Numbered from the stretch's first letter, positions 61,723 to 63,419 are shown. The stretch is DNA of 64,000 nucleotides from Candidatus Pacearchaeota archaeon (GCA_017609405.1 JAFCDZ010000001.1:98561-162560); one strand, 5' to 3'. Numbers and translations: made by a program. Notes: a model not told the origin generated them from the sequence alone.

Positions 61723-62427
61723 ATGGATAAAATAAAAGAGGCTTTTCAAAAAGTAAAGGAAGATATAGAGTCATTGAAATATTCATTAACTGAAATTAAG
61801 CAGGAATTAAATTCATTAAAAAAAGATATTTTAGACCTTAAACACCCTATTCAAGCACCTGTTTATGATTCAAACATGCCAAATCAAGATAATTTATCTG
61901 TCGAAACACTTTCGACACACTACACCCAAAATCCGGCATTTCGACACACTCTTTCGACAAATAATTCTCCTTTTTACGCCTTAAAACCCCAAAATTTTGA
62001 TATTTCCACTGGAAATCAAGGGGTTTCGACAGACAGACAGACAGACAGACAGACAAACCAACAGACACAAAATACCCCAAATTTTAAAAAAAATTCTTTT
62101 GAAGATGCTGTTAAAATACTTGATTCTTTAGATTCAATAAAAAAAGAAATAAGATTAATGTTTAAAAAACTTACAGAAAGAGAAATGGCTGTCTTTTCAG
62201 CAATTTATCAAATTGAAGAAGAGAAGGGTTTTGCAGATTATTCATCAATTTCTTCTAAATTAGGGATCTCTGAAAGTTCTGTAAGAGATTATGTTATAAG
62301 ACTAATAAAAAAAGGAATTCCCGTCGAGAAAACTAAAATTAACAATAAAATTATTCATTTAAATGTTTCAAAAGATATGAAAAAAATAGCACCTCTTTCT
62401 GTAATAATACAATTAAGAGATCTATAA
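61723..62427 (+). CDS. coiled-coil, repeat linker and C-terminal winged-helix protein (paralogue A)
   Basis: N-terminal heptads (IKEAFQKVKEDIESLKYSLTEIKQELNSLKKDILDLK). C-terminal LTEREMAVFSAIYQ...SSISSKLGISESSVRDYVIRLIKKGIPVEK. Same architecture as 62575..63225. Confidence 0.6.
   Translation: MDKIKEAFQKVKEDIESLKYSLTEIKQELNSLKKDILDLKHPIQAPVYDSNMPNQDNLSVETLSTHYTQNPAFRHTLSTNNSPFYALKPQNFDISTGNQGVSTDRQTDRQTNQQTQNTPNFKKNSFEDAVKILDSLDSIKKEIRLMFKKLTEREMAVFSAIYQIEEEKGFADYSSISSKLGISESSVRDYVIRLIKKGIPVEKTKINNKIIHLNVSKDMKKIAPLSVIIQLRDL
61899..62031 (+). repeat. five copies of TTTCGACA (one inverted, forming an 8-3-8 palindrome) inside the CDS linker
   Basis: TGTCGAAA-CAC-TTTCGACA at 61899-61917, then TTTCGACA at 61939-61946, 61952-61959 and 62024-62031. 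The 12-mer TTTCGACACACT occurs twice. Confidence 0.85.
62028..62055 (+). repeat. (GACA)7 tetranucleotide microsatellite inside the CDS
   Basis: Seven perfect GACA units, encoding TDRQTDRQT. Confidence 0.9.
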
Positions 62428-62574
62428 AACCCATAATTCCCTTTTTTTATTAGTTATTCGTCTAAACGAATACTTATTTACCTCTTTCTTTCTCTTTTTT
62501 ATTTATCCATTTATTTAGACTCTTTTCTTTAATAAATAAATATCTTTTTTTTGATTTTTTAACCTCACTTTTTA

Positions 62575-63225
62575 TTATTCTTCCTCTTTTTCTTCTTTAT
62601 TCTCACTTTTTTCATCTTTTTTACCTAATTTTACTCTCACTTTTGCTGTTTTTAATAGTTTTTCTTTCATTTCTTCAGGTATATATACCCTTTTTTTACC
62701 ATTTTTTTCAATTTCTTCTACTATTAAACTCTCACTTTTACGTTTTATAGCATTAATTTGGCCCCTAATTGTGCTTTTTTCCTTTCCTAATAGCGCTGCT
62801 ATATCTCCATAGCTTAATTTCATATCAGAACTCAATAAAACCCATATAATCGCTCTTTCACTTAGTGAAAAATCAGATAATTTTGGTGTTTGAACACCTG
62901 TTTGAACACCTGTTTGGACAACTTCAACACCTGTTTGTTGTTTAAACACCTGTTTGGGTGTTTTAAACACCCTTTTTGTGTCTAAATTTCCAATTATTTG
63001 AATCATTCCTTTCAGATTTTCAATCTCTGATTTTATCGTCGATAAATCTTCTTCAATTTTTTCTATTTTTACATCCTTTAATTTTCTCTCAGAATTCAAG
63101 AAATTTATACGCTCTTCTAAGGTGTTGATATCTTTTTTTACTGCTTCAAAACTCTTTTTTGTTTCTTCTTTTATTTTTTCAACCTCTTTTGATCTAAACA
63201 ACCATCCAAACATTCTAATAATCAA
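62575..63225 (-). CDS. coiled-coil, repeat linker and C-terminal winged-helix protein (paralogue B)
   Basis: N-terminal heptads. Linker QQTGVEVVQTGVQTGVQTPK. C-terminal LSERAIIWVLLSSDMKLSYGDIAALLGKEKSTIRGQINAIKRK. Confidence 0.6.
   Translation of the reverse strand: MIIRMFGWLFRSKEVEKIKEETKKSFEAVKKDINTLEERINFLNSERKLKDVKIEKIEEDLSTIKSEIENLKGMIQIIGNLDTKRVFKTPKQVFKQQTGVEVVQTGVQTGVQTPKLSDFSLSERAIIWVLLSSDMKLSYGDIAALLGKEKSTIRGQINAIKRKSESLIVEEIEKNGKKRVYIPEEMKEKLLKTAKVRVKLGKKDEKSENKEEKEEE
62885..62972. repeat. AACACCTGTTT iteron cluster inside the CDS of paralogue B
   Basis: Full copies at 62893, 62905, 62926 and 62945, a partial AACACCC at 62966, and inverted half-sites GGTGTTT at 62885 and 62957. 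Confidence 0.85.
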
Positions 63226-63369
63226 TAGAAATCTTCATTTAAAAATCTTTTTATTTTCTTTTTTTAATTTTTATTTTATCGTCGGTATTTTTAATAATCT
63301 TATTTTATTAAATTTTATTATAAAAGTTATTAAAAATTTTAAGGCTGTTTAAAATTAAAATTTTCTAAT

Positions 63370-63419
63370 AAACACCTGTTTAAACACCTTTAAACACCTT
63401 AAACACCTGTTTAAACAGC
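63370..63419. promoter_or_regulatory. tandem AAACACC(TGTTT) iteron array in the divergent promoter region
   Basis: AAACACCTGTTT AAACACCTTT AAACACCTT AAACACCTGTTT AAACAGC, with periods of 12, 10, 9 and 12 nt. About 145 nt upstream of the start of 62575..63225. Confidence 0.8.

Follow-up and report, generated by a model that had tools for sequence, protein, structure and literature searches.

Nucleotide-level constraint on the linker codons of two convergent winged-helix genes beside a predicted replication origin in Pacearchaeota and related archaea

Introduction

Why should a protein segment that is predicted to be disordered be the most conserved part of its family? This question is raised by two convergent genes, called here gene A (61723..62427, + strand) and gene B (62575..63213, − strand), in a 64,000-nucleotide (nt) stretch of the genome of a Candidatus Pacearchaeota archaeon (GCA_017609405.1, JAFCDZ010000001.1:98561-162560). 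This whole 64-kb stretch is referred to as the window, and the word counts for the source genome were limited to it. An initial annotation of this DNA described an N-terminal coiled coil, a short repetitive linker and a C-terminal winged helix-turn-helix (wHTH) domain in both products, a family of short DNA words inside each linker-coding region, and a tight array of the gene B word in front of gene B. We compared the locus with 80 species-level loci (L001-L080), which were fetched for synteny and upstream comparison. The alignments demonstrate strong nucleotide-level purifying selection on the linker-coding words of both genes, and the linker-coding DNA most likely serves as a set of protein-binding sites in addition to encoding protein.

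Results

The gene B word in the window

The word AACACCTGTTT occurs exactly six times in the window, at 62893, 62905, 62926 and 62945 within gene B, and at 63371 and 63402 in the upstream array. With up to one mismatch, 12 matches were found against 1.2 expected, and this number was reached in none of 100 shuffles. The generalised palindrome AAACANNTGTT has a single window match outside the gene B locus. The intragenic cluster (62885..62972, no strand assigned) contains the four AACACCTGTTT copies together with half-sites at 62885-62891, 62957-62963 and 62965-62971. Read on the coding strand, the words appear as CAAACAGGTGTT, which encodes QTGV three times, and as AAACAGGTGTTT, which encodes KQVF, in two reading frames.

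The upstream array (63344..63419, no strand assigned) is composed of GCTGTTT at 63344-63350, AAACACCTGTTT at 63370-63381, AAACACCTTT, AAACACCTT, a second AAACACCTGTTT at 63401-63412 and AAACAGC at 63413-63419. Its units start with AAACACC at 63370, 63382, 63392 and 63401 and with AAACAGC at 63413, giving periods of 12, 10, 9 and 12 nt, and it starts 131-157 nt 5' of the conserved gene B ATG at 63213. The copy numbers and the 9-12-nt periods given in the initial annotation were reproduced. The open reading frame (ORF) of gene B was also retained, with its start moved from the TTG at 63225 (− strand) to the conserved ATG at 63213, from which a protein of 212 amino acids beginning with MFGW (MFGWLF in the source genome) is read.

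Synonymous sites in the gene B linker are frozen

No part of the gene B protein is more conserved than the linker peptide, VFKTPKQVF-KQTxVxxVQTGVQTGVQTP, although it is predicted to be disordered, and the explanation lies in the DNA words that encode it, which are conserved at the nucleotide level. Both genes were sought in 81 sequences, of which 73 gave a complete gene B and 75 an intact gene A, and the 73 complete gene B orthologues, at about 60% protein identity, were used for codon and entropy analyses. Within the repeat, Q is encoded by CAA in 219/219 cases (CAA share elsewhere in the gene, 68%), G by GGT in 86/86 (30% elsewhere), A by GCT in 54/54 (36% elsewhere) and T by ACA in 209/221 (53% elsewhere), while GTA, which accounts for 28% of V codons elsewhere in the gene, is never used.

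At third codon positions, the entropy averages 0.59 bits for the linker and 1.14 and 1.09 bits for the two folded domains. In the word core, the third positions fall to about 0 bits and the second position of the G/A codon carries about 1 bit, and the pattern across the linker sites is thus the opposite of that of protein-level selection. The variable bases are the two central positions of AAACA-NN-TGTTT, where GG, GC, CC, TC and AC lead to G, A, P, S and T, respectively. The word copy in the second frame is read as AAA CAG GTG TTT (KQVF), with KQLF, KHLF and KQMF as orthologue variants. Over the 73 loci, the density of the full site AAACANNTGTT is 29/kb in the linker, 4.6/kb at -350..-50 upstream and 0.05/kb in the remaining 573 kb. 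The words are therefore DNA-level elements and not by-products of a peptide repeat; the freezing of synonymous sites is strong for gene B and also holds for the core of the gene A linker described below.

The upstream array and the gene B promoter in orthologues

Upstream half-sites, defined as SSTGTTT or AAACASS, were counted from -350 to -40 relative to gene B in 71 loci. At least three were found in 69 of the 71 loci (median 7, against 0.26 expected), and at least one full palindrome in 53/71. The spacing between half-sites of the same orientation peaks at 10, 12 and 13 nt, and then at 20-23 and 30-31 nt, so that gene B is preceded by the helical-turn-spaced repeat array that is a trait of ParR/omega/SegB-type systems. 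At an identity of only 43-49%, orthologues still have large arrays upstream, the words inside the gene and the recognition helix STIRGQIN. Upstream and coding copies are also correlated in their sequence variants, with a rho of 0.40 (p = 5e-4) for a GG versus a GC centre and of 0.51 for the arm variant TGTTT versus TGTCC, both calculated without phylogenetic correction. The initial annotation had allowed that orthologues might be without the DNA words or the promoter arrays; the arrays turned out to be conserved and to co-vary in part with the linker words, which favours the finding.

A candidate core promoter of gene B was located at 63238..63284 (− strand), with the TATA-like sequence TTTTTAAA at 63238-63245 and a CGWCG box, CGACG, at 63280-63284. 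From what is known of the archaeal transcription factor B recognition element (BRE) and TATA box, this block is probably the gene B promoter. The promoter-like consensus tTTT.tCGWCGrAAAaCAAAAsaTTTTTAAA is kept about 30-65 nt 5' of the ATG, and the end of the array is about 75 nt 5' of this block. The CGWCG density is 21/kb at -70..-40, as compared with 0.2-0.3/kb in distal flanks. The CG palindromic box TTTTCG(A/T)CGAAAA lies about 12 nt 5' of the gene B TATA and peaks again at -300..-200. In L092, L094 and L095, more distant relatives that share the N-terminus, the position of the promoter box is taken by whole arrays of words, either CGTCG-type or otherwise rich in CG, and linker words are absent. 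The likeness of the TTTCGAC word of gene A to the CGWCG box of the gene B promoter (TTTTCGWCGAAAA) was too weak to build on.

The word is switched together with the recognition helix

A distant gene B subfamily, called FMNV here (L081-L086), is still syntenic with p143, a conserved gene of the cluster, or with a gene A-like gene. Its recognition helix reads VTxRRHIND, as compared with STIRGQIN in the main family. The linker peptide of the subfamily is FMNVQS, and the DNA encoding it is a different 12-bp palindrome, CGTTCATGAACG. Each gene has 2-4 copies of this palindrome, which are read in two frames, as FMNV and as VHERS. The base before CGTTCATGAACG is fixed while the amino acid varies (S/T/P/L). 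Outside the subfamily gene, CGTTCATGAACG had no match in 26 kb. Of the evidence at hand, this joint switch of helix and word speaks most strongly for a protein that reads the words of its own gene.

Architecture and relatives of the two proteins

AlphaFold2 models of both proteins were built with 47-sequence alignments. In the gene B model, a long N-terminal helix (residues 3-76; 62986-63207) is followed by a disordered linker (about residues 77-116; 62866-62985), in which the predicted local distance difference test (pLDDT) score is below 50 at residues 81-106, and by a C-terminal wHTH domain (residues 117-188; 62650-62865; pLDDT > 90). The gene A product, of 234 amino acids, has an N-terminal helix (residues 2-40), a disordered linker (residues 41-124; 61843-62094; pLDDT < 50, disordered at about 44-121) and a C-terminal wHTH domain (residues 125-233; pLDDT > 90), which is MarR-like by Foldseek. 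The fold in both models is a single wHTH of three helices and two strands with pLDDT > 90. With the C-terminal domain of gene B, Foldseek placed MarR/ArsR-like wHTH structures at the top, without a specific family, at E of about 1e-4; for both proteins the similarity is confined to the wHTH core, and the TM-score normalised to the target is 0.4-0.55. The models and the structure search thus match the plan of coiled coil, linker and wHTH proposed from the sequence. The gene B protein is predicted to dimerise through the separate N-terminal helix.

That the two genes are paralogous, as the initial annotation stated, is plausible on weak support. The hhalign comparison of A and B aligned 27 HTH columns at 71% probability, BLASTP gave E = 0.006 within the N-terminal helix, the motif F-x2-VK-x-D is common to the N-termini of both families, and both linkers have a 'QT' periodicity of four residues. 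The gene B N-terminus, MxFWxFxKK, is kept even in very distant relatives.

The gene B family comprises 1760 homologues, in about 307 clusters at 50% clustering, with no Pfam domain on record for any of them; for gene A, 1404 homologues were found. Wherever the source is named, homologues of both are labelled archaeal (Woese-/Pacearchaeota, Nanoarchaeota), the best matches having 50-69% identity. Gene B matched no family model at cut-off in Pfam and NCBIfam scans. For gene A, the generic HTH model PF01325 (Fe_dep_repress) was the sole one to pass, barely over its cut-off at 30.4 bits, and sequence searches of the PDB with both proteins gave weak HTH matches at most. The Pfam matches of the two genes include generic HTH models only, with no MarR model, no Rep_3 signature and, even at E ≤ 1, no ParB-like N-terminal (CTPase) domain (PF02195). 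The statement that no described family has this layout was borne out by these scans, apart from the generic model for gene A, and no description of the module was found in the literature searched.

An origin recognition box in the linker codons of gene A

In the window, the gene A word TTTCGACA occurs five times, at 61899 (− strand), 61910, 61939, 61952 and 62024, against 0.8 expected, and five copies were reached in none of 100 shuffles. The count agrees with that of the initial annotation, including the perfect 8-3-8 palindrome at 61899-61917. Four of the words are located at 61899..61959 (no strand assigned) and encode L/x-S-T-H, one of them frame-shifted (AFRH). The fifth, together with a (GACA)7 tract, occupies 62024..62055 (+ strand); it comes right after a G-string, and the (GACA)7 at 62028-62055, which is unique in the window, encodes TDRQ repeats. 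The view of TTTCGACA as a private iteron of gene A did not survive comparison: among the 75 orthologues, 34 have TTCGACA and the other 41 use TYCCAACA, and the word is thus a lineage variant. In these variant words the ACA codon alone is fixed, and 98/103 copies are in one frame.

The conserved core of the gene A linker is instead TTTCCACTGGAAATCAAGGGG (62003..62023, + strand), which encodes ISTGNQG and after which come TT-TCG/CCA-ACA and (GACA)n. By its sequence this core element is a canonical origin recognition box (ORB). The mini-ORB core is present as TTCCACTGGAAAT at 62004-62016, with TTCC and GAA around the dyad and two central bases that vary in orthologues, and the G-string CAA-GGGG follows at 62017-62023, 3' of the core. 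The TTCCACTGGAAAT string is also found in the P. furiosus ORB1 oligonucleotide, on the other strand as TTCCAGTGGAAAT (PMC1904270), and G-strings are a common feature of ORBs (PMC1868953). The same type of ORB, roughly TTTCYAnnnGAAAYCAAGGGGT, is present at the cdc6-adjacent origin in most of the listed intergenic regions between the PRC-barrel gene and cdc6.

In about 70 of the 81 loci, the ORB pattern was found inside gene A. Elsewhere, over about 650 kb, it is nearly absent, apart from copies in the PRC-cdc6 intergenic region and, in 9/72 loci, in the interval between the array and the gene B TATA. The ORB codons, counted in 67 gene A orthologues, are rare ones frozen against the genome bias (TCC 67/67, GGA 67/67 and GGG 67/67). 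In (GACA)n, GAC (145/149) and CAG are likewise preferred against the codon bias of the genome. The third-position entropy of gene A is about 0-0.3 bits in the core, as compared with 1.4 bits in the domains. Given the ORB and (GACA)n, the element is most likely bound by Orc1/Cdc6, and not by the product of gene A itself. The (GACA)n tract varies from 1 to 10 pure units among orthologues and resembles bacterial contingency loci; no frameshifted alleles were seen.

A conserved module adjacent to the predicted origin

The conserved order in the 80 loci is array, gene B (+), gene A (−), p95 wHTH gene (−), p143 (−), PRC-barrel gene (−), intergenic region, orc1/cdc6 (+) and the PolD DP1 gene (+). Gene A adjoins gene B convergently in 79/80 loci. 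In the window, orc1/cdc6 (55193..56467, − strand; Pfam Cdc6_C, Cdc6_lid and AAA), PolD DP1 (53653-55200; DNA_pol_E_B) and PolD DP2 (50229-53660; PolC_DP2) were identified. The 770-bp intergenic region 5' of the orc1/cdc6-DP1-DP2 operon (56468..57238, no strand assigned) has about 19% GC and coincides with a local minimum of the cumulative GC skew. Within it, an ORB is found at 56970-56989 (TTCTACACGAAATCAAGGGG), and the sequence at 56518-56529 forms a weak inverted dyad (TTCCTATGGAAA). The region is the probable oriC, in a typical archaeal setting. AT-rich tandem repeats are found within it at 56546-56660. The claim that the locus is near an origin was thus confirmed by cdc6-DP1-DP2 and the AT-rich, ORB-containing intergenic region, and since the gene order is shared, genes A and B sit in a conserved origin-adjacent module. 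We also considered the array and gene B as a second origin and rejected this, as the interval does not have the character of an AT-rich unwinding element, and the usual combination of ORB and unwinding element adjoins cdc6.

The distance from the cluster to oriC is 1.5-3 kb in most genomes and 5-6 kb in the source genome. The latter has insertions at 57239-58345 and 59339-61336, in which an FkbM-type methyltransferase gene, a 364-amino-acid aminopeptidase-like gene and ORFs of 189 and 62 amino acids are found, and its PRC-barrel gene is inverted relative to the consensus order. The p95 gene (61395..61682, + strand), directly 5' of gene A and present in 74/80 loci, encodes a small wHTH protein with weak HTH_69 and MCM_WH matches. 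The p143 gene (58891..59322, + strand) is present in 71/80 loci; its product had no Pfam or PDB match and a sub-threshold NCBIfam match, and profile searches with p95 and p143 gave nothing informative. As the initial annotation noted, a partner ATPase of ParA/SegA type is missing: no KGGxGK[ST] motif was found in any frame of the window, and the conserved neighbours (wHTH, p143 and PRC-barrel genes) include no nucleoside triphosphatase (NTPase).

In about 17 loci, extended sites such as TGTTTAAACAGCTGTTT, which may be bound as well, occupy corresponding positions within neighbouring genes or at their ends, 2-3.5 kb 5' of gene B and without exception on the side away from the origin. Such sites are in a HAD-like hydrolase gene in L006, L010, L022, L031, L032, L047, L050, L078 and L079, and in a serine-recombinase-like gene in L024, L028, L046, L074 and L079. 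The genes that carry them adjoin XerC-like genes, and the rare CTG codon is used (KQLF). In L010, the HAD-like protein ends with the gene B-like peptide KQLFKQPVQTP. As a serine-recombinase gene that contains the motif is near in some loci, the upstream and intragenic sites were considered as partners in a site-specific inversion, and this was rejected: no inverted or disrupted allele was found in the 80 loci, and gene B was complete in 73/81 sequences.

Another inverted repeat, TTGTGCACTWAGGTTAnCTTAGT (on the gene B strand), stands before each small gene divergent from gene B (DUF5654-like and others). It is probably the site of another regulator. It occurs at 63454-63480 and 63848-63870 in the window and at about -200..-450, -600..-1000 and -1000..-1400 from gene B in L001-L080, about 40-60 nt 5' of TATA-like boxes, with 175 matches on one strand versus 20 on the other. 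In some loci it is preceded by a complementary stretch, CTTTAGTGC. Elsewhere in the window, Tandem Repeats Finder reported a repeat of 66 nt, with 2.4 copies that are 98% identical, and an AT-rich one of 27 nt, with 2-3 copies, at 37550-37706 and 48188-48277. The sole tRNA, tRNA-Thr(GGT) at 15141-15231, is long (91 nt), which suggests an intron.

Discussion

In the loci compared here we observed constraint at the nucleotide level, conservation of the arrays, synteny next to oriC, the architecture of the proteins and the joint switch of helix and word, and from these observations we infer the identity of the binder, its cooperativity and the regulatory outcome. In the reading that we favour, with a probability of roughly 0.5, a dimer of the gene B wHTH protein binds its own gene and promoter in an autoregulatory or organising role, and Orc1/Cdc6 binds the ORB of gene A. 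The gene B protein would dimerise through its N-terminal coiled coil and carry two wHTH domains on flexible tethers. These domains would read the half-site SSTGTTT, either in the AAACA-NN-TGTTT palindrome or in direct repeats about one helical turn apart, and the flexible tethers would explain why direct and inverted arrangements and spacings of 9-13 bp are tolerated. By binding AAACASSTGTTT arrays, the protein would load cooperatively on two clusters, one of 5-15 half-sites located 100-300 bp 5' of the gene B promoter and the other of 4-5 sites at +237..+320 within the coding sequence. A nucleoprotein complex of about 550 bp could then be formed by spreading or by looping between the clusters, and feed back on gene B transcription. 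Orc1/Cdc6 from the adjacent origin would bind the gene A ORB, and the cluster would thereby be coupled to the initiation of replication, in the manner of the ORB cluster inside dp1 of Thermococcales.

Several points weigh against this reading. The binder of AAACA-NN-TGTTT could be p95, the gene A product or Orc1/Cdc6. The half-site centres of the palindrome are 7 bp apart, which is tight for a classical wHTH dimer, and the model therefore needs the flexible tethers or the binding of alternate sites. The array is clear of BRE/TATA, so that simple archaeal repression is not the obvious outcome. The correlations between array and linker (rho 0.40 and 0.51) take no account of phylogeny, and the switch of helix and word is one evolutionary event. 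At the FMNV-subfamily loci the linker words are present and a promoter array was not found, and the array is therefore not a universal part of the system. Finally, the additional sites 2-3.5 kb away in about 17 loci fit chromosome organisation at least as well as autoregulation.

This last point leads to a different role for the same protein, which we consider possible though not likely: a centromere-like or origin-positioning complex. The gene B protein would mark its own gene and promoter and tether or organise the origin at the membrane or the division apparatus, through the hydrophobic-basic MFGWFFKKK helix and the coiled coil, with autoregulation as a side effect. The position of the cluster 1.5-3 kb from oriC in most genomes, with a PRC-barrel gene adjacent, speaks for such a role, as do the half-sites themselves, which number up to about 15 per locus, mostly 10-13 bp apart, and are far above the need of an operator. 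Sites in the binder's own gene guarantee the linkage of binder and site, the N-terminus MxFWxFxKK is conserved in very distant relatives, and the extra perfect palindromes TGTTTAAACAGCTGTTT in neighbouring genes of about 17 loci use a rare CTG codon and are origin-distal. However, neither the window nor the conserved cluster contains a ParA/SegA-type or other NTPase, the membrane role of the N-terminus is read from composition alone, and the FMNV subfamily has 2-4 sites only. In addition, the source-genome locus is 5-6 kb from oriC and separated from it by insertions, and tight linkage to the origin is therefore not required. A specific form of this role, which we hold to be doubtful, is an ATPase-less module in which the gene equals the centromere: a membrane-tethered gene B protein would anchor the origin by sitting on its own promoter and linker codons, and the Orc1/Cdc6 box in gene A would couple this to replication. 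Alternatively, and in our judgement improbably, the 2-kb region would be an extended origin control region, with both word families read by Orc1/Cdc6, p95 or the gene A product, and not by the gene B protein. The canonical ORB inside gene A agrees with this, and so does the further ORB at -100..-135, between the array and the gene B TATA, in 9/72 loci, which mostly has TTCGACACAT directly after it; there are precedents in which ORB clusters located away from the origin are bound by Cdc6 or have a part in origin regulation (PMC1904270; PMC4010727). However, AAACA-NN-TGTTT has no likeness to an ORB and does not occur in the PRC-cdc6 intergenic region, and in the FMNV subfamily the word switches along with the recognition helix of gene B.

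Two further explanations would dispense with a DNA-binding protein, and both appear very remote to us. The words might work at the mRNA level, where a structure or a protein site would serve translational control. The gene B linker mRNA does fold better than shuffles (z = -3.2) and its inverted repeats could form hairpins, but the gene A region gives a z of only -1.8, the GGUGUU/AACACC helix is broken in 38/74 orthologues with no compensatory change, identical words stand in the non-coding array 5' of the inferred TATA box, and 61600-64000 has no Rfam match. Equally hard to credit is the absence of any nucleic-acid function, the peptide repeats (QTGV, TDRQ) being homogenised by slippage or gene conversion, or (GACA)n being a phase-variation tract. 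Identical tandem units within a genome (GGTGTT/GGTGTT in 34, GCTGTT/GCTGTT in 13 and GCTGTC/GCTGTC in 8 genomes) and the range of (GACA)n from 1 to 10 units across species would be expected from such processes. Homogenisation within genomes, however, cannot fix codons over 73 species at about 60% identity, the third base is fixed while the amino acid varies, the words occur in two frames and in non-coding DNA, and gene A is intact in 75/81 sequences with no sign of frequent frameshifted alleles.

The initial annotation had likened the locus to ParR, omega or SegB partition systems and to plasmid Rep-iteron systems. Membership in these could not be upheld, as the fold is wHTH and not ribbon-helix-helix, there is one winged-helix domain and not two, and no ATPase partner is present. 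In the plasmid ParR-parC and omega systems, ribbon-helix-helix binders work with an NTPase partner, and cooperative arrays serve both autoregulation and partition. Gene B shares with them 7-11-bp repeats about one helical turn apart, 5' of the binder's own gene; it differs in its wHTH fold, its chromosomal location, the lack of a partner NTPase and the extra sites in its own coding sequence. The Rep initiators that bind iterons (RepA, pi) have two winged-helix domains and the Rep_3 signature, and inverted repeats form the rep operator. A winged helix with direct and inverted repeats near an origin is common to both, whereas gene B has a single wHTH and no Rep_3 match, and the origin next to it is of the standard Orc1/Cdc6-ORB type.

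In bacterial ParABS systems, parS sites lie inside spo0J/parB, and ParB, which has a CTPase/ParB-N domain and an HTH, works with ParA. The present locus resembles this in having origin-proximal palindromes within the gene of the presumed binder, with more copies near, some of them in other genes. Unlike ParB, the gene B protein consists of a coiled coil, a linker and a MarR-like wHTH, with no ParB domain and no ParA, and its sites are in linker codons and a promoter array. For MarR/ArsR factors, palindromic operators and autoregulation are typical, and dimerisation is through helices flanking the wHTH. The C-terminal fold of gene B is the same (Foldseek E about 1e-4), whereas its separate N-terminal coiled coil, on a disordered tether of 30-80 residues, and the absence of a MarR Pfam match set it apart. 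The gene A ORB has its nearest counterpart in the Thermococcales dp1 gene, which holds a conserved intragenic ORB/mini-ORB cluster bound by Cdc6/Orc1 (Matsunaga et al. 2007; PMC1904270). In both cases the ORB core TTCCAsTGGAAAT is conserved in a coding gene a few kb from oriC, and genes lie between two ORB sites. Unlike dp1, gene A encodes a wHTH regulator, its ORB, usually a single one, is in linker codons and followed by (GACA)n, and the binding of Orc1/Cdc6 is a prediction only.

Sites in the gene of the binder (parS in parB) and intragenic ORBs (dp1) are thus already known. What is new here is the systematic placing of site cassettes in the linker codons of two adjacent regulators, the extent to which synonymous sites are constrained, and the joint switch of word and recognition helix. 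A simple rule for finding the target of a DNA-binding protein follows from this locus: its linker codons are searched for palindromic words in which the synonymous sites are frozen. Should the complex organise the origin region, archaea would have a new, NTPase-less way of positioning the origin; and if the module in which the gene equals the centromere were true, the codons of the disordered linkers would be protected, co-inherited site cassettes, in which the word is rewritten when the recognition helix changes. Cell-cycle control in DPANN archaea, the group of tiny archaea that includes the source organism, is essentially unknown, and the module offers a testable origin-adjacent set of two regulators, a 12-bp palindrome, an intragenic ORB and a predicted oriC. 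With stretches of 30-60 nt that are selected as DNA and yet translated, in hundreds of uncultivated archaeal species, it would rank among the clearest natural cases of dual coding.

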